Source: Elainellaceae cyanobacterium (lineage in GTDB: Bacteria; Cyanobacteriota; Cyanobacteriia; CAZCXK01). From it: 16,078 nucleotides of DNA. Below, one piece after another: positions 1-15,957 of the stretch. The DNA lies in NCBI GenBank assembly GCA_051117555.1, contig JBNPEG010000083.1, forward strand, positions 46,172 to 62,249. The letters run 5' to 3'. The position numbers were made by a program, and so were the translations under genes. Position 1 is the first letter of the stretch; each line of letters starts with the position of its first letter. The notes below the pieces were generated by a model. It worked only from the letters and a program-made list of their open reading frames with translations. It searched no databases and had not been told where the DNA came from.

Positions 1-352
1 GCTATACGAACTATGTCTGCCGTCACAGACAATTTCTCAACCCGCGCAGGCGGGTTTCGTTCGTGTGCAATTTCAATTGCCGATTGAATGATTTGTCGTA
101 AAGGTTGTCTCTATGCCGTCCGATTAAAATCGGCGGCTACACGGACTATGTCTACCGTCGCGGACATTCTTCCCAACCCGCGCAGGCGGGTTTTGCTTGT
201 GTAGGTGCAATTTCAATTGCCGATTGAATGATTTGTCGTAAAGGTCTCTATGCCGTCCGATTAAAATCGGCGGCTATACTAACTATGTCTGCCGTCACAG
301 ACAATTTCTCAACCTGCGCAGGCGGGTTTCGTTCGTGTGCAATTTCAATTGC
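1..352. repeat. Tandem array of ~135-137 bp palindrome-rich (REP-like) units, about 2.6 copies visible, running off the left edge
   Basis: GCTAYAC..ACTATGTCT recurs at 1, 136 and 273. Units contain hairpins such as AACCCGC-GCAG-GCGGGTT, GCAATT-TC-AATTGC and CCGATT-AA-AATCGG. Confidence 0.9.
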
Positions 353-384
353 AGCAAACCCAAAAAGAATTTTTATATTTACAA

Positions 385-416
385 AGATCCCCGGTTTTTG
401 CAAAAACCGGGGATCT
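385..416. repeat. Perfect 32-bp palindrome; possible 3' end/terminator of the minus-strand TR transcript
   Basis: AGATCCCCGGTTTTTG|CAAAAACCGGGGATCT is self-complementary. The terminator role is inference. Confidence 0.75.
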
Positions 417-449
417 AAGCTTTGGATGGAATATAAGGAATATTTTGAT

Positions 450-730
450 AGAGCCAGACAACTCTTCAGCGAACTTACCAAGATATCTGGCTCTGGGTTA
501 TTTTCGGAAGGCGTTATCACCCTCACAGGAACAGGTCTGGACTCCCAGTTGTACGCCCGATAAAATCCCTTTTACCAGTTCTGACTGTTGGGAGTGCTTA
601 CGCAGACACGCACACCACCCGAAAACCAACATTGTTGTTGATGTTGTCGGGGGAGTTCCTGTTCCGATTCGCCGAACGACAGTTAATCGGATTGTTGTAC
701 CAGGAACCGCCGCGTTTTAATGCCTGCCCC
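450..730 (-). ncRNA. Putative DGR template RNA (short leader + TR + structured 3' spacer)
   Basis: Contains TR and complementary segments 723-730/528-535, 589-595/541-547, 507-524 and 450-458/486-494. No convincing ORF. Confidence 0.65.
597..715 (-). repeat. DGR template repeat (TR)
   Basis: 119-nt ungapped match to 941-1059; 14 of 15 mismatches are at minus-strand adenines of this copy. Conceptual translation RGGSWYNNPINCRSANRNRNSPDNINNNVGFRVVCVSA*, with 10 AAY codons. Confidence 0.96.
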
Positions 731-736
731 GAATGA

Positions 737-745
737 ACAATATCA
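737..745 (-). promoter_or_regulatory. Candidate extended -10 promoter for the TR RNA
   Basis: Minus strand TG-A-TATTGT (TGnTAnnnT), 6 nt upstream of the GGGGCAGG leader. No clear -35. Confidence 0.4.
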
Positions 746-856
746 CGCAATGATAGGTCATTCTGTTATTTTTTGTTGATTCGGTATGGCATGCCACATT
801 CCTACAGAGATGATGTAGCAGTCAGAAAATGGGTAAGTCTTGATCAAGAAATTTTT

Positions 857-940
857 TTGCGCGCAAAGCGCGCAAGGGAAAGAGAGCTAAAAGCGGAAGC
901 GCTGAGGGCTAAAGGGCTAAAGAGCAAAGAAAAAGGAATC
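857..940 (-). promoter_or_regulatory. DGR target cis-elements: IMH region, pyrimidine-rich tract and GC hairpin
   Basis: After the VR stop codon come GATTCC, then CTTTGCTCTTTAGCCCTTTAGCCCT, then the hairpin TTGCGCGC-TTT-GCGCGCAA (857-875). Confidence 0.7.
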
Positions 941-1059
941 CTTACGCAGACACGCACACCACCCGAAAACCAACATCGGTGAAGACGTCGCCGGGGGAGC
1001 TCCCGGACCGATTCGCCGAACGACAGAAAGTCGGATTGTTGAACCAGGAACCGCCGCGT
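941..1059 (-). repeat. DGR variable repeat (VR), 3' end of the target gene
   Basis: Encodes RGGSWFNNPTFCRSANRSGSSPGDVFTDVGFRVVCVSA*; an adenine-mutated copy of 597-715. Confidence 0.96.
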
Positions 1060-2273
1060 AGAATCCGTATATCGCTGTCTCCGCCTATGTTCCAGGCACT
1101 TCCATCCGTGGGTGCATCTTGATAATTTTCATGCCAATAATCAAGACACCATTCCAAAACAGTCCCATGCATATCAAACAGCCCAAACGCATTGGCAGAG
1201 AAACTACCGACGGGTGTTGGTTTCTCTCGATATTCTCCTTTAGGAGCTGAGCCATAGATATAGTTGCCGTTATAGTTTGCCAGGTCAGTCGTGATTGTTT
1301 CGCCAAAATGAAACGGCGTTTGAGTTCCGGCACGACAGGCATATTCCCATTCGGCTTCGCTCGGCAAACGATACTCAGTTTTAGTTTGTTGAGACAGGCG
1401 CTCACAAAAGGCAATCGCATCATGCCAACTCACGCCAACGACGGGCTTATCAGGCACAACAAAGCGGTCATTATCATATTGCGTCGCAGGATTAGTTCCC
1501 ATCACCGCTTCATACTGCGCCTGCGTGACAGGAAACTTGCCCATGGAAAATGGCGAGACATTGACCCGATGTCGAGGTAGTTCTCTTGCAAAATACGTCT
1601 GATACTTTTCTTCTCCAACTTGGCGAATCAATTCTTGCGTTTCTGCACTCGTCTGTCCTATCCAACATGTTCCAGATGGAATCTGCACCATCTCTAGCGT
1701 GACACCATTGCCCAAGTTTTCGGCAAAATATTGAGCCTGTTGGCGCTGACGCTGGATTTCTTTACCCTGTGCATTCACCTTTGCCACTTCAAAAGAAAAT
1801 GACTTTAGCGCAGATGATGAAGACGGAGTGGCAGAGACGCTAGGTGATGATGATTGCGTTGGTTTGCGTCCTGTAATACCCCAAATTAGCTGCGTCATTG
1901 GTTCAGGATGTGGTTCTCGAAAGTCTACCCAGTGAAACCCTTCCAGAAAAATTGGCAGAGTTGGCTTTACTGGAGCAGATGGTAAAAGAACGGGAATGAC
2001 AGGCAAGTCCTGCTTAACGAATGCGCGAATATAAGCACGCATCTCTCGCTTTTGCCAGGGGCCTAAGCCCGCTTCGCCTACAAACACTGCGACGCAGTTG
2101 ATTTGTCTTATCTGTTCTTCTAAAATCTCTTGCCAATCAACACCGGGTCGAAGTTCCCACACGTCAAGCCAGGGTTTGAGCTGATGGTGCCGAAGCTGTT
2201 CGGCAATTTCGATGACAGCAGGCTTATCTTCGCTGTTGTGACACAGGAAAACATCAAATTGCCGCTCGGTCAT
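942..2273 (-). CDS. TIR-domain + FGE-sulfatase (SUMF1/CLec-fold) protein; DGR target
   Basis: N-terminal FDVFLCHNSEDK...WLD.WEL.PG..WQ...WQKREM (TIR_2-like), Ser/Pro linker, C-terminal PVTQAQY, PVVGVSWHDA, YRLPSEAEWEYACRAG, NAFGLFDMHG, RGGSW, GFRVV. Confidence 0.93.
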   Translation of the reverse strand: MTERQFDVFLCHNSEDKPAVIEIAEQLRHHQLKPWLDVWELRPGVDWQEILEEQIRQINCVAVFVGEAGLGPWQKREMRAYIRAFVKQDLPVIPVLLPSAPVKPTLPIFLEGFHWVDFREPHPEPMTQLIWGITGRKPTQSSSPSVSATPSSSSALKSFSFEVAKVNAQGKEIQRQRQQAQYFAENLGNGVTLEMVQIPSGTCWIGQTSAETQELIRQVGEEKYQTYFARELPRHRVNVSPFSMGKFPVTQAQYEAVMGTNPATQYDNDRFVVPDKPVVGVSWHDAIAFCERLSQQTKTEYRLPSEAEWEYACRAGTQTPFHFGETITTDLANYNGNYIYGSAPKGEYREKPTPVGSFSANAFGLFDMHGTVLEWCLDYWHENYQDAPTDGSAWNIGGDSDIRILRGGSWFNNPTFCRSANRSGSSPGDVFTDVGFRVVCVSA

Positions 2274-5052: not shown

Positions 5053-6294
5053 ATGTCTGTTATTTCACTTTTGACCGTCGATGGCGATCGCCTCAATCAC
5101 AATCTTGATACCTTGGCAGAAATTGGAAAATTACCGAGAGGAGGCGTTCGGCGCATTTCCTTTAGCCCTGAAGACCAGTTAGCTCGGCACCTCGTTGCCA
5201 ACTGGATGCGCGAAGCAGGCATGTCAGTGCGCACTGATGCCGCAGGCAACATCATCGGCACCTATCCAGGCAAAGCCGCTCTCCCCGCCTTTGCCACCGG
5301 ATCTCATATTGACACCGTTCCCTCAGCCGGACGCTACGACGGCACACTTGGAGTGTTGGCAGGCATCGAAGTCGTGAGAACCCTCAACGAAAATAACATC
5401 ACGCTGAATCATCCTATTGAAGTGATTGTCTTCACTGACGAAGAAGGCAGCATGATTGGCAGTAAAGCCATGACAGGCAGCATGAAACCCGATCCAGACG
5501 CCTATCATCGCAAAGACGGCACCTCGATTCAAACGTGTCTAGAAGTCATTGAGGGCGATTGGGAGACTCTCCACACAGCTCAGCGCACGAGTGATGAAAT
5601 TGCCGCATTTATTGAACTCCACGTCGAGCAGGGGGGAGTTTTAGAAGCAACCGGAACTCAAATCGGGGTCGTCGAAGGGATTGTCAGCCTCAATCGATTC
5701 ACCATCACGGTATTAGGTCGCCCTAATCACGCAGGTACGACGCCCATGCATGCGCGCCAAGATGCACTGGTGGCTGCGTCTCACATTGTGCTCGCAGTCG
5801 AAGATTTGGCGAAGAACTCCCCTGGCGATCAGGTTGCCACAGTCGGCATGCTCAACGTGTTGCCGAATGCGGCCAACATTGTGCCGGGGCAGGTCGATCT
5901 AAGCCTCGATATTCGTGATTTGTCGCAAGAGCACGCGGATAGCCTCGTCGCTCAACTCAAGCAACGCTTAAAGCAGATTGCTGAACAAACGGGCACCACT
6001 ATTACTGTTGAGCAACTACTGCGGGTAGAACCAACCTTGGCAAAACCCCGCATCCAAAGGGCGATCGCTCAGATTGCCCAAGACTTTGGATTGAGCTACT
6101 GCATGCTGCCTAGTCGCGCCGGACACGATGCTCAAGAAATTGGGCGATTCACCGACATGGGAATGGTTTTTGTGCCTAGCATTGGCGGCATCAGCCATGC
6201 TGAAGATGAATACACCTCTCCAGAACAGTGCACCCAAGGGGCTAACATATTGCTAAACGCGTTTATGCGCTTAGATGACGAGTATACGTCTTAG
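5053..6294 (+). CDS. M20 family Zn-dependent hydrolase (allantoate/N-carbamoyl-amino acid amidohydrolase)
   Basis: GSHIDTV, GRYDGTLGV, DEEG, ELHVEQG, NHAGTTPM, AGHDAQ, GISH motifs; GGAGG ribosome-binding site. Confidence 0.92.
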   Translation: MSVISLLTVDGDRLNHNLDTLAEIGKLPRGGVRRISFSPEDQLARHLVANWMREAGMSVRTDAAGNIIGTYPGKAALPAFATGSHIDTVPSAGRYDGTLGVLAGIEVVRTLNENNITLNHPIEVIVFTDEEGSMIGSKAMTGSMKPDPDAYHRKDGTSIQTCLEVIEGDWETLHTAQRTSDEIAAFIELHVEQGGVLEATGTQIGVVEGIVSLNRFTITVLGRPNHAGTTPMHARQDALVAASHIVLAVEDLAKNSPGDQVATVGMLNVLPNAANIVPGQVDLSLDIRDLSQEHADSLVAQLKQRLKQIAEQTGTTITVEQLLRVEPTLAKPRIQRAIAQIAQDFGLSYCMLPSRAGHDAQEIGRFTDMGMVFVPSIGGISHAEDEYTSPEQCTQGANILLNAFMRLDDEYTS

Positions 6295-6819: not shown

Positions 6820-8118
6820 TTAAGCGGCATGAGGTTCTAACGAATCGTCGTGCCGCCCTAATAGCAGATAGGTCGTCATCAAGCCTTTGCCTTTGACATC
6901 GATCGTACCCCGCCTTTCGACCTGGTAGCGATCGCCCAATCGCTCATAGACCGCCGGAGTTACCTGGATGCAGCCCGCAATTCCCTGAGATTCCATGCGA
7001 CTTGCCACATTAACCGCATCTCCCCATAAATCGTAAATAAATTTCTTTCGACCAATCACGCCTGCGATGACGGGTCCGGTGTTGATGCCAATGCGGAGCT
7101 GGAGGGGTTGATTCTCCTGAGTCTTAAACTGGGCGACGATGTGCTGCATGTCTAGGGCGAGTTCAGCAACCGCTTCAACGTGGTCGTTCCGTTCGATGGG
7201 CAGTCCGCCCACCACCATATAAGCGTCCCCAATGGTCTTGATTTTCTCTAAGTTGTGACGTTCAACCAGTTGGTCGAAGGTAGAAAATACCCGATTGAGT
7301 AAGTCAACCACATCATGGGGCGGCACGCCTGCCGATAATCGAGTGAAACCAACAATATCAGCAAACAAGACCGTTGCTTCGGCAAAACTGTCGGCGATGA
7401 TGCGCTGCTCTTGTTTGAGTTTTTCGGCGATCGCTTCCGGCAAAATATTGAGTAGCAACCTTTCCGATTTTTCTTGTTCGGCTTCTAATCGGCATCGCGC
7501 TTCAAACTCAGACTTTTGAAGCTGCTCGTATAAATACACAGCCAAATTGCAGATCGCGCAAAACCAAAATACGTAGAGGGCTTGCCGACCGTTCCACAAG
7601 GTTCCATTGCGAGGAGATAGACCGAATACTGAATTAACGCCAAAATAGTAAATCAATACGCCCAGTTGAGACACTAAATGCAAGGGCCAACGGACTGGAA
7701 TCAATGTTGATTGGGTTAAAAACACCAGCGTCCAGGAAAAGAGCCCAGGAAACGCGATCTGCTGTAATGTTGCCCAAATCTGCTCAACTAGCGTGATCGA
7801 CCAAGACGCTCCTAAAAAAAGAACAGCCGGATGCTGCTGCCCAAATGATGTGTATTGGAGGAGTAGGCACAATACTAAGCCAAGCTCCGCTGTGATTGCC
7901 ATCACCAGCCAAGAGAAGTCCCACTCGGCAGTCATGATGCCATGAACCGCTCTAAGCAAAATAAATGTGAAATATGCAACGATCGCGATCGTCAGCCCGA
8001 GTCGGATGCGATTTAACATAAACCGCCGTCGCCATGACTGATACGCTCTATTCGAAGGGGACTGAACGACTCCCGAAGACGCTGCGTCTAGATAAGACGA
8101 TAATTCTGAATTTCCCAC
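6820..8118 (-). CDS. Membrane-bound class III adenylate cyclase
   Basis: About 6 hydrophobic segments, ERLLLNILP helix, VLFADIVGFT, EKIKTIGDAYM, YDLWGDAVNVASRMES (the K/D pair indicates ATP specificity). Confidence 0.92.
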   Translation of the reverse strand: MGNSELSSYLDAASSGVVQSPSNRAYQSWRRRFMLNRIRLGLTIAIVAYFTFILLRAVHGIMTAEWDFSWLVMAITAELGLVLCLLLQYTSFGQQHPAVLFLGASWSITLVEQIWATLQQIAFPGLFSWTLVFLTQSTLIPVRWPLHLVSQLGVLIYYFGVNSVFGLSPRNGTLWNGRQALYVFWFCAICNLAVYLYEQLQKSEFEARCRLEAEQEKSERLLLNILPEAIAEKLKQEQRIIADSFAEATVLFADIVGFTRLSAGVPPHDVVDLLNRVFSTFDQLVERHNLEKIKTIGDAYMVVGGLPIERNDHVEAVAELALDMQHIVAQFKTQENQPLQLRIGINTGPVIAGVIGRKKFIYDLWGDAVNVASRMESQGIAGCIQVTPAVYERLGDRYQVERRGTIDVKGKGLMTTYLLLGRHDDSLEPHAA

Positions 8119-10038: not shown

Positions 10039-11043
10039 CTATCGTCTTCGTTTGGATTTTGAAGATGGGTAGAGTTGGCAAAGCTGAATCACTCGGGTCT
10101 GTATGGTCGATAGTGCGTCAGCACCGCGTTTAAGGTCAACCTCTAGCTCAAGCAATATGGGAAGCGTGCGCCTTAATGAATCTAAAGAAAGGGGCTCGAC
10201 ATCTCGCTGCAAGAAGTAAACTCGCTTAGGATTGCCTACTTCTGCTGCCCGGGCGATCGCCTGAATATCGCGCTCTCCAGACTCTACCATGACCTTGACC
10301 CACAGCCATGTGCGGAACTGATTAGTCACGGTGGTCACAATTCTTAGGGCTGGTTCGTTCTGACTAAACAAGTCAGAGATTAGAGTGAGAGCCTGAGACG
10401 CATCACCCTGGCGGATAGCAGTCGCAAGCTGAAGACTGCTTTGGGTGGATGTGGTCACTAGTTTAGCAACGGTGTCTGCTTCGACAACCGATTGAGGCAA
10501 CCCCGCATAGAGCTTTAATTTTTCGAGTTCATTAAACAGTTGCCGAGTATTATTACCGATTGCATCGGCTAAGCAGTGAGTGGCCTCCTGACTGAGTTTA
10601 ACGCCAACATCGGCGGCTGCCCGATGAACTGCTTTGATGAGTTGGTCAGTCTTCCACGGAGGGATAACCGGAAACTCTCGAATTTCAGCATATTTTTGCA
10701 GCAATTTCGTCGATTTGAGCCGACCATCTGGTTTTTGGCTCATGGTGATCAGCAACACAGAGGTATCGGGAATTGCGGGTAAGGTGCGTTCCAGTTCAGA
10801 CAAAAGAGAGTCTGGGCATTTTTGGCCTAGAGTGGTGTTAGGAAGCCAAACGAAGCGATCGCCCGTGCCAAAGGGCGGGGTCATGACTTGATTTAATGCC
10901 TGAATGACTGGATCGGCACTTTCAGGAGAAATTTTGTGGTAATTAAAACTGGCCCATTGGGGGTCTAACGTGCGATCGCGCAGTGCATCAACCGATCGTT
11001 CAATTGTAAAGTCATCGTCACCCCAGTATACGTAAATCGGCAT
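10039..11043 (-). CDS. holA: DNA polymerase III subunit delta
   Basis: MPIYVYWGDDDF, TPPFGTGDR.V, KPDGRLKSTK, L.NELEKL.LY, NEPALRIV, GNPKRVYFL. Confidence 0.92.
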   Translation of the reverse strand: MPIYVYWGDDDFTIERSVDALRDRTLDPQWASFNYHKISPESADPVIQALNQVMTPPFGTGDRFVWLPNTTLGQKCPDSLLSELERTLPAIPDTSVLLITMSQKPDGRLKSTKLLQKYAEIREFPVIPPWKTDQLIKAVHRAAADVGVKLSQEATHCLADAIGNNTRQLFNELEKLKLYAGLPQSVVEADTVAKLVTTSTQSSLQLATAIRQGDASQALTLISDLFSQNEPALRIVTTVTNQFRTWLWVKVMVESGERDIQAIARAAEVGNPKRVYFLQRDVEPLSLDSLRRTLPILLELEVDLKRGADALSTIQTRVIQLCQLYPSSKSKRRR

Positions 11044-11284
11044 ATGGCAATCTTAGATGGGTTGTGAGCGGTGGGGCGGGCTGAGCCTGCGTATGTATTT
11101 AGCGTAACGCCCTAGAGATCCCCCTAAATCCCCCTTAAAAAGAGGGACTTCAGCAACCTGTAGATAGCCCCCTTTTCAAGGGGGCAGCGACAGCGGGGGA
11201 TCAGCGGGGGATCTTACGCGCTAAACATATACGAGCCTGCCCCACCGCTCACATATAAGTCACAAGCGATTTAGGATCGCTATA
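11043..11284. mobile_element. TA-flanked MITE (IS630-like ends) carrying a nested insertion
   Basis: Imperfect terminal IRs TATGGCAATCTTAGATGGGTTGTGA / TCACAAGCGATTTAGGATCGCTATA; an uninterrupted relative lies at 13348-13433. Confidence 0.8.
11091..11232. mobile_element. 142-bp MITE with 8-bp target-site duplication
   Basis: GAGCCTGC at 11083-11090 and 11233-11240; IRs GTATGTATTTAGCG / CGCTAAACATATAC (12/14); CCCCCTAAATCCCCCTT..GGGGGAT core. Confidence 0.85.
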
Positions 11285-13337: not shown

Positions 13338-13347
13338 TATCAGATTC

Positions 13348-13433
13348 TATAGCAATCCCAGATGGGTTGTGAGCGGTGGGGCGGGCGGCGCCTGCTGGTC
13401 ACACACAATTTACAAGCGATTTAGGTCGCTATA
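13348..13433. mobile_element. 86-bp TA-flanked MITE, same family as 11043-11284
   Basis: TATAGCAATCCCAGATGGGTTGTGAGCGGTGGGGCGGGC ... ACAAGCGATTTAGGTCGCTATA. Confidence 0.8.
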
Positions 13434-15341: not shown

Positions 15342-15384
15342 GCTATCAGTAATGGCTATCAGTAATGGCTATCAGTAATGGCTA
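15342..15384. repeat. 13-bp tandem repeat x3 abutting the IS630 left end
   Basis: GCTATCAGTAATG at 15342, 15355 and 15368, then GCTA. Confidence 0.85.
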
Positions 15385-15957
15385 TAGCAACCTAAAATAG
15401 GTTTTGAACAAACATTAGAATGAGGAGGAGTCGTTAAAGAGCATTTTAGACAAACTGATGGAGACCCTTGAACAGTTTATTGAGAGCAACCCGAAGCCCC
15501 GAGAACTCAAACGTGCTGTTGCCGTGCAAATGAGTCAACGAGGCCATACCTATCGAGAAATCCGTGATGTGCTTCAGGTGTCGCTCGGGTTTGTGACCGC
15601 TTGCTGTCAGCGCTATGAGGAGCAAGGGGTGAAGGGTCTCAAGTTGAACTACTGGGGAACGCAGGGCTATCTTAACCCCAAACAGAAGGAAGAACTGATG
15701 GTCTGGTTGGCTCAGAAGGATGCTTGGTTACTGGAGGAGGTGGTTGAGCATATCGAAGACGCTTATGGCGTGGTTTACCAATCCTCCCAGAGCTACTACA
15801 CGCTACTGAAGCAAGCCGGATTCAGTTGGAAAAAGTCACACTCAACCCACCCGGATAAAGATGAGACGCAGGTGGAGGAAAAAAAACTGAAATCATGGAA
15901 TTACTGGTGCAGTGGCGGGCCGAAATTGCTGCTGGCAATGTCCGAGTGATGTTCTTA
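15383..15957 (+). mobile_element. IS630-family element, left part (interrupted)
   Basis: TA + TAGCAACCTAAAATAGGTTTTGA left end, followed by an HTH transposase ORF. Confidence 0.85.
15458..15957 (+). pseudogene. IS630 transposase N-terminal part; -1 frameshift at an A8 run, then interrupted
   Basis: RELKRAVAV, YGVVYQS.QSYY.LL..AGFSWKK. The A-run at ~15879-15886 leads in the -1 frame to TEIMELLVQWRAEIAAGNVRVMFL, which breaks just before the expected catalytic D. Confidence 0.85.

Follow-up and report, generated by a model that had tools for sequence, protein, structure and literature searches.

The 16,078-nucleotide stretch of an Elainellaceae cyanobacterium genome analyzed here (the window; C81:46172-62249, C81 being a 62-kb contig in an assembly of 256 contigs rated 100% complete) contains a genuine template/variable repeat pair of a diversity-generating retroelement (DGR), which as a DGR is of a known kind. 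The variable repeat (VR) forms the 3' end of a gene for a TIR-CLec protein, and the template repeat (TR) lies behind that gene. The pair is not a self-contained DGR, because neither a reverse transcriptase (RT) nor an Avd protein is encoded on C81. The best explanation of the locus, to which we assign a probability of roughly 0.68, is a compact satellite DGR cassette that lacks its own RT and is served in trans by an RT-Avd pair resident in the same genome. Contigs are denoted below by C and genomes by G.

The template/variable repeat pair and its target gene

Pairwise alignment of 597-715 with 941-1059 is gapless over 119 nt at an offset of 344, as the earlier note had read from the letters, and a repeat search of the whole window extends the pair to 591-715 and 935-1059 (125 nt, 86% identity), the longest repeat that the window contains. 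Fifteen mismatches lie within 597-715, and 14 of them fall at a plus-strand T, i.e. a minus-strand A, of this copy at every position listed in that note (Table 1), the sole mismatch off a TR adenine being 686 (A/G on the plus strand). The mismatch rate is 14/28 at A sites against 1/91 at non-A sites (Fisher p = 8.9e-10). Because no mismatch has an A in the 941-1059 copy, the direction is unambiguous and 597-715 is the template. Read in the frame of the open reading frame (ORF) 942-2273(-), the template copy holds 25 A (13 in the first, 12 in the second and none in the third codon position) spread over 15 sense codons, and the A-bearing codons are ten AAY together with TAC, ATT, AGG, GAC and ATC. 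With this codon set an A-to-N change in the TR never gives a stop, and the final 10 sense codons are A-free; both properties had been claimed and were borne out by the codon reading. The claimed number of possible DNA variants was also counted correctly (4^25 = 1.1e15), and the corresponding ceiling for protein variants is 15^10 x 768 = 4.4e14. The last 36 nt of the VR (941-976) are the same in the TR and A-free except for the stop codon, resembling an initiation of mutagenic homology (IMH) end.

Plain duplication of the 3' end of the gene followed by point mutations, without any DGR, has practically no chance of explaining the pair: nothing beyond the existence of the repeat favors it, and it is refuted by the adenine specificity (all differences but one lie on one base of one copy, p = 9e-10), by the restriction of the differences to codon positions 1-2 and by the DGR RNA scaffold, common to RT-linked TRs, in which the copy is embedded. 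Nor is 597-715 the tail of a translated paralogue, which the earlier note had named as a possible refutation: the frame over it gives only a 50-codon ORF, no FGE domain lies upstream and the DGR RNA scaffold surrounds it. The proposed action of a DGR on a CLec-fold ligand-binding site is supported by the adenine-specific mismatches and by the position of the VR at the 3' end of an FGE-sulfatase domain.

The target protein consists of a TIR_2 domain (residues 8-129; PF13676 at 1.5e-25), a Ser/Pro-rich linker and an FGE-sulfatase domain of CLec fold (residues 194-439; PF03781 at 1.2e-51), and its sequence matches in the PDB include PvdO (5hha) and Treponema TvpA (2y3c, 1.5e-24). PADLOC returned weak TIR-family matches to bSEFIR, SAVED_TIR and ThsB, and the TIR translation contains W73-x3-E77, a putative equivalent of the catalytic Glu motif. 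The gene probably encodes a cytoplasmic-type TIR-CLec protein in which ligand sensing would be coupled to a TIR effector.

No RVT_1 match was found on the whole of C81, which extends 46 kb to one side of the cassette and 15 kb to the other, and no RT occurs among the window ORFs scanned. The locus has no Avd either, bAvd or NF033474 proteins being found only beside the RTs of C116 and C8, and the 225-nt spacer between VR and TR contains no Avd-sized ORF and no remnant of an RT or Avd. The elements on C116 and C8 are complete, canonical cyanobacterial DGRs whose RTs are 65% identical and whose preceding Avd proteins both score above the NCBIfam cut-off; a further VR of the C8 element lies on C177. 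A third RT match, on C222, was rejected as not DGR-type: this fragment of 185 aa shares 23% identity with the C116 DGR RT, and its best NCBIfam match, below the cut-off, is to a group II intron RT/maturase. The window TR is 76% and 78% identical to the two RT-linked TRs, and the non-A sites of the window VR match only the window TR and neither of the RT-linked ones. The TIR-CLec gene therefore has a private template and is not a remote target of the C116 or C8 element.

The template RNA gene and its relatives in other cyanobacteria

Over the 185 nt past the window TR, identity to the flank of the C116 TR is 87%, the TR bodies being 76% identical, and similarity to the C8 TR flank is weaker; BLAST against 60 relatives found this module of TR plus flank in many cyanobacteria. 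Seventeen modules were aligned, and the RNAalifold consensus gave 46 pairs outside the template. In this consensus the template is looped out by pairing between an upstream box and a segment downstream of the TR. The other features are a long helix topped by a 9-bp stem with a GGGA loop, a stem-loop with an A-rich run behind it, and a terminal hairpin that closes the element. Across the 46 pairs, 95.5% of cells are paired and 32 pairs show compensatory changes, against 33-49% of cells and 9-12 pairs in a control in which the partners were slid by 1-3 columns, a comparison that favors the structure somewhat since it was derived from the same alignment on which it was scored. The covarying pattern argues for an RNA and not a protein. 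The window scaffold keeps 44 of the 46 pairs, the same count as the RT-linked C116 copy, its single-sequence fold has z = -3.1, and covariance model R1 scores it at 154 bits, the window sequence having been in the training set. The closing duplex (helix 1) has nine pairs, four of them with a compensatory change, and is the counterpart of the 'cPRT Stop duplex' described by Handa et al. (10.1101/2023.10.23.563531); the window RNA holds the elements that this preprint, as far as its text was available to us, describes for cyanobacterial DGRs. Elements of the kind required for reverse transcription thus appear from the sequence to flank the window TR, with putative binding of RT-Avd.

The template probably belongs to a separate small RNA gene on the minus strand, with predicted transcript ends at about 743 and 385. 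A promoter-like site lies about 20-30 nt upstream of the RNA 5' box; it is weak evidence, as two matches to the promoter consensus were found against 0.8 expected. The perfect palindrome behind the RNA element also follows the orthologous gene in the nearest genome, G002, where compensatory changes have preserved it, and is likely the end of the transcript; a terminator scan of 300-1000 called nothing, this palindrome included. No Rfam family reaches its gathering score anywhere in the window, and over 370-1000 Rfam gave only chance-level matches (E >= 0.46). The antisense ORFs 228-563(+) and 248-526(-) over the RNA element belong to no Pfam family and were rejected. In Trichodesmium, the TR RNA is reported as a separate, abundant 265-nt transcript with its own start site (PMC4143802).

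The covariance model of the 3' element was searched in 151 genomes of the class, and the same genomes were surveyed for RTs with the C116 RT protein as query (E <= 1e-30). This yielded 69 scaffolds in 39 genomes and an RT match in 26 genomes, all of which also hold a scaffold. An RT match lies within 3 kb of 37 scaffolds (for four of them RT fragments only), another 18 have none nearby and lie in 13 genomes with an RT elsewhere, and the remaining 14 are found in 13 genomes without an RT match. A few of the 18, namely G142:C297, G106:C525 and G076:C85, lie at the end of a contig and could be canonical loci cut short; in the near-complete assembly G116 the satellite is 3.1 Mb away from the only RT. 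The layout of the window, with the TR following the VR at an offset of 288-410 nt and non-coding sequence between them, recurs in nine cassettes of RT-bearing genomes and in four more from genomes without an RT match (offsets 283-449 nt). By eye, the targets of these compact cassettes differ, with kinase-like, caspase-like and TIR-like N-termini, and the cassettes share a pyrimidine-rich tract after the VR followed by a short GC hairpin with an A/T run. In the window this hairpin, with a stem of 6 bp and a loop of 3 nt, follows the pyrimidine-rich tract, 68 nt behind the VR, and an equivalent layout is seen in the spacers of eight compact cassettes. It may be a target-recognition hairpin or a terminator; compared with the consensus given for phage DGRs (stem of 7-10 bp, 4-nt GRNA loop, distance of 4-34 bp; PMC3240598), its stem is shorter, its loop has 3 nt and it stands farther from the VR.

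Six scaffolds have no VR within about 6 kb (G017_C14, G012_C1, G071_C81, G145_C1, G028_C43 and G059_C65), and four scaffolds of RT-bearing genomes have none either (G000_C89, G009_C4, G063_C57 and G138_C100); these ten and the G046_C66 pair stand outside all mismatch tallies. G017:C14:145623-145888 is a TR-plus-scaffold module with 46/46 pairs intact and no VR within 5 kb, and G017 (99% complete, 30 contigs) has no DGR-type RT match, so that the module looks like a stranded template RNA gene. In the complete genome G145, a high-scoring scaffold (G145:C1:3227792-3229167) adjoins remnants of an Avd and an RT with two stops each and is clearly a decayed canonical DGR.

With each pair trimmed to its repeat, non-A mismatches number 2/910 in 10 RT-linked pairs. 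The 13 satellite pairs are nearly as clean, at 9/1210 (p = 0.13), while the four usable pairs from genomes in which no RT was matched reach 9/376 (p = 4e-4), both p values being relative to the RT-linked pairs. A-site mismatches amount to about 50% in both RT-linked and satellite pairs. Moreover, two comparisons between genomes show rewriting after divergence. G003, of the same family as the window's genome, and G111, of a different family, carry cassettes (G003_C4 and G111_C37) that both lack an RT and have homologous spacers, TRs identical at 125/125 positions and target genes 84% identical; their VRs differ at 16/30 shared A sites and at 1/95 non-A sites. The TRs of G135_C169 and G148_C266 differ at four sites, and at 4/4 of these each VR agrees with the TR of its own cassette. 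Because both members of each pair share the RT-less layout, the rewriting occurred while the cassettes lacked an RT of their own. The G003:C4 and G111:C37 scaffolds are 95% identical alongside their identical TRs, which points either to strong constraint on the RNA module or to recent transfer or conversion of it.

Proposed service in trans weighed against loss and assembly artefact

We propose that the window locus comprises two units, the TIR-CLec gene ending in the VR and, about 225 nt downstream, an RNA gene made up of a 5' box, the 119-nt TR and a 150-nt structured 3' element. On folding, the 5' box would pair with the 3' element and present the template, and an RT-Avd complex encoded elsewhere in the genome, most probably that of C116 and alternatively that of C8, would bind the RNA. 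The template would then be copied with random bases opposite its adenines, and the cDNA would replace the VR upstream of the invariant 36-nt end, recoding up to 15 codons of the lectin-fold binding surface. We infer that the window cassette is still being rewritten.

The choice of C116 as the more likely server is consistent with the kinship of the scaffolds. In the scaffold tree the window adjoins C116 with a support of 0.965. The distal half of the window scaffold is 94% identical to C116, whereas its proximal half is 73% identical to C116 and 87% to a satellite of G014, and this mosaic suggests that the window scaffold may have exchanged sequence with the resident element.

Several points weigh against service in trans. 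Activity at the window is judged from other cassettes, and no close relative carrying this cassette was found. The window pair itself has one non-A mismatch (686), and a gap of 100 N lies 600 nt beyond the RNA element. Clean removal of avd-RT from a canonical locus would likewise result in a VR-to-TR spacing of 283-457 nt. The G111 pair is clean (0/89 non-A mismatches) in a 99%-complete assembly that yielded neither an Avd nor a DGR-type RT, so a clean TR/VR pair is not proof of a resident enzyme; the G148 pair is clean as well, in an assembly that is 87% complete. In addition, a satellite does not as a rule group with the RT-linked scaffold of the genome that carries it (G003 and G014_C49 are cases in point), and RT-Avd would therefore need to accept scaffolds of other sub-clades.

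The main rival holds that the locus is a frozen relic, in which its own avd-RT between VR and TR, or another usable one, was recently lost and the adenine pattern records past activity. We regard this as unlikely but far from negligible. Decay is common among these elements: the G145 scaffold scores high beside a pseudogenized Avd and RT, four scaffolds stand beside RT fragments only, G093 and G107, which have no RT match, show 5/93 and 4/99 non-A mismatches, and the window's own genome holds on C89 an apparently collapsed cassette in which an FGE gene is fused to a scaffold. In the sister genome G002 the TR module and all DGR RTs are absent, whether lost or never acquired, and Wu et al. report discarding over half of their candidate DGRs as inactive (PMC5758913). 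Against loss of activity, however, only 1/91 non-A sites differ between the window TR and VR, the scaffold retains 44/46 pairs, the genome encodes two intact RT-Avd pairs, the 225-nt spacer is without a remnant of RT or Avd, and homologous RT-less cassettes elsewhere were rewritten after divergence. The part of the spacer upstream of the TR (716-830) gave no BLAST match to the C116 or C8 loci and sheds no light on an origin by deletion of avd-RT.

An assembly artefact, with the cassette's own avd-RT hidden in the 100-N gap (C81:46072-46171) or in an unassembled piece, is very improbable. In its favor, a gap that may be longer than its 100 N lies about 600 nt beyond the RNA element, and the assembly consists of 256 contigs. 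Both edges of the gap, however, lie in one array of 137-nt repeats, so that it most simply hides repeat units, and the clade order is target-avd-RT-TR, yet VR and TR are here joined by 225 nt of contiguous sequence. A unique avd-RT of 1.5 kb would moreover form a contig of its own, only the C116 and C8 RTs occur in this 100%-complete assembly, and the same layout is found in the near-complete genomes G116 and G133.

G002 is the nearest genome, of the same genus and 99% complete. Its ortholog of the target gene, on C40, is 82% identical and is followed directly by the palindrome, the 498-nt TR module being missing there; in the window, two copies of AAGGAAT bracket this module. Neither a scaffold nor a DGR-type RT was found in G002. 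The difference may reflect an insertion in the window's genome or a deletion in G002. Over the first 85 nt, the VR homologue of G002 differs from the window TR at 19/26 A sites and 20/59 non-A sites, which is suggestive of an old, related template; it is too diverged to be used further. The G002:C40 ortholog, compared with window 227-1883, is split into two ORFs of 157 aa and 290 aa, and identity to the window rises from 82% over the whole gene to 100% in its final 41 nt, stop codon included.

A fourth scaffold of the window's genome (C89:188-470, 118 bits) stands directly after the 3' end of an ORF with an FGE domain, without a separate TR or spacer and without a partner repeat elsewhere in the genome. 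It may be a collapsed cassette such as VR/TR recombination would leave. A tRNA-like sequence, recognized by eye, follows it.

No sequencing run turned up for window 380-1400. In metagenomes, the exact 28-nt pattern from the invariant end was found in no contig, and a protein-guided scan gave 79 loci, none above 63% identity, which allowed no strain-level comparison; the RNA model found nine scaffolds at these 79 loci, in compact, canonical and fused layouts.

Known systems, significance and further features

The locus shares much with the cyanobacterial FGE-sulfatase/CLec DGRs described by Wu et al. 2018 as 'Lineage 4' (PMC5758913), by Vallota-Eastman et al. 2020 (PMC7517822) and in PMC4143802: the A-specific TR/VR differences with an AAY-rich template, the VR at the 3' end of an FGE/CLec domain on a signaling or effector N-terminus, and, going by the available text of these sources, a TR RNA transcribed separately and built on a conserved scaffold. 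The N-terminal domains that PMC7517822 lists for DGR targets include TIR. Unlike these systems, the window locus has no avd or RT and has its own TR, distinct from the RT-linked TRs; the only dispersed component named in the available text of the cyanobacterial surveys is the 'remote target' of an existing TR.

The incomplete loci of Thiohalocapsa sp. PB-PSB1 (Dore et al. 2024, PMC10907252) are likewise without an intact RT and still diversified, and the authors raise diversification in trans 'by an RT and/or TR encoded elsewhere'. According to the portion of that paper that we could consult, the targets are putative antigen sensors, some with TIR effectors, the resolved trans cases have VRs matching the TR of DGR 2 or DGR 3, and loci that keep their own TR are explained by structural variants with intact RTs (PMC10907252). 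The window cassette differs in keeping a private TR RNA gene and in a layout that recurs across cyanobacterial families. In the DGR RNA of Bordetella phage BPP-1 studied with bRT-Avd by Handa et al. (10.1101/2023.10.23.563531), the template is likewise flanked by RNA that RT-Avd needs, and the preprint describes these flanking elements as especially conserved in Cyanobacteriota. The BPP-1 RNA comes from an avd-TR-brt operon; the window RNA is encoded by an isolated gene beside its target. TvpA of Treponema denticola (2y3c) has a sequence-similar FGE/CLec variable domain (E = 1.5e-24), and in the Treponema DGR one RT serves dispersed genes, as proposed for the window; its remote targets, as reported by Wu et al. 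(PMC5758913), match the TR of the DGR itself and have no TRs of their own. In the accessible parts of the literature on RT-less or multiple TRs (PMC5758913, PMC7517822, PMC6642488, PMC4891356, PMC4159848 and PMC8144416), DGRs with several TRs and 'partial systems' in fragmented data are mentioned, and the compact RT-less cyanobacterial layout is not described, although it may be tabulated in supplements.

If such cassettes are served in trans, more cyanobacterial proteins would be under programmed hypermutation than RT counts suggest (a further 18 of the 69 scaffolds), and new genes would be recruited not by a whole retroelement but by an RNA module of 0.5 kb. Searches for DGRs look within about 10-20 kb of an RT. 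They start from the RT and then seek repeats nearby, as outlined in PMC8144416 and PMC4159848, and for this reason private TRs far from an RT would be missed, or their genes filed as 'remote targets' of the wrong template. The joining of a TIR effector to a hypervariable lectin fold fits the proposal of DGR-tuned intracellular antigen sensors made by Dore et al. 2024. Moreover, the cassette is a natural test of the specificity of RT-Avd for its RNA scaffold, which bears on engineered DGR mutagenesis.

More tentatively, and at somewhat less than even odds, filamentous cyanobacteria may hold 'distributed' DGRs. Private template-RNA genes, scattered over the genome at a distance of 0.3-0.45 kb behind their respective sensor genes, would depend on one or two RT-Avd pairs, new protein families would be recruited by seeding of the 0.5-kb module, and the scaffolds would be kept compatible with the enzyme by gene conversion. 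Offered for this reading are the 7-nt direct repeats around the module, the adjoining REP/RAYT repeats and the distal half that is 94% as in C116.

Table 1. Features of the window and of the two complete DGRs of the genome. Positions are those of the window unless a contig is named.
Feature	Position	Strand	Basis or remark
Target gene, 443 aa	942..2273	-	ORF list, Pfam, PDB sequence search
Variable repeat (VR)	941..1059	-	last 38 sense codons of the target gene plus stop
Template repeat (TR)	597..715	-	non-coding, 28 A
Mismatches at TR adenines	633, 635, 638, 639, 642, 645, 647, 656, 660, 662, 663, 683, 684, 698		
GC-rich hairpin GCGCGC / 3-nt loop / GCGCGC, then A/T run	859..873	-	sequence
Promoter-like site TCAACA, 18 nt, TATCAT	750..779	-	consensus match only
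Closing duplex (helix 1), 5' strand	723..731	-	pairs with 527-535; RNAalifold, pair counts
Structured 3' element of the TR RNA	449..596	-	17-module alignment, RNAalifold
Helix of the 3' element	589-594/542-547	-	RNAalifold
9-bp stem with GGGA (GNRA) loop, Avd-binding stem-loop type	557-578	-	RNAalifold
Closing duplex (helix 1), 3' strand	527-535	-	RNAalifold
Stem-loop, then A-rich run	506-526, then 494-505	-	RNAalifold
Terminal hairpin	451-493	-	RNAalifold
Perfect 32-nt palindrome	385..416	-	after the RNA element; sequence and G002 comparison
Direct repeat AAGGAAT, 7 nt	933..939 and 435..441		comparison with G002
C116 complete DGR, target (VR) - Avd - RT - TR	RT C116:43452-44876		profile searches
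C8 complete DGR, target - Avd - RT - TR - second target	RT C8:5354-6768		profile searches

Arrays of 136-137-nt repeats with three internal hairpins per unit occupy window 1-352 and C81:44978-46508. They are REP/RAYT-like and flank a gene for a 164-aa IS200-like Y1 transposase (C81:45250-45744; PF01797 at 3.2e-23). Copies of the repeat unit also bracket the C116 DGR (40595-40682 and 45287-45374), and a further array is found on C75.

Elsewhere in the window, small dispersed repeats with GC-rich cores lie in intergenic sequence at 11042-11090, 13347-13395 and 15382-15407, with inverted arms at 11063-11082 and 11234-11253, and look like miniature mobile elements. The ORF 15458-15949 (+), 163 aa, has only HTH_33/HTH_23/HTH_32 domains, a set that we take to be the usual N-terminal part of IS630-type transposases, and may be a transposase fragment. 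The palindrome GCGATCGC, presumably the HIP1 motif typical of cyanobacteria, occurs at many sites (e.g. 2374-2381, 5085-5092 and 6928-6935) and seeds many of the short repeats of the window.

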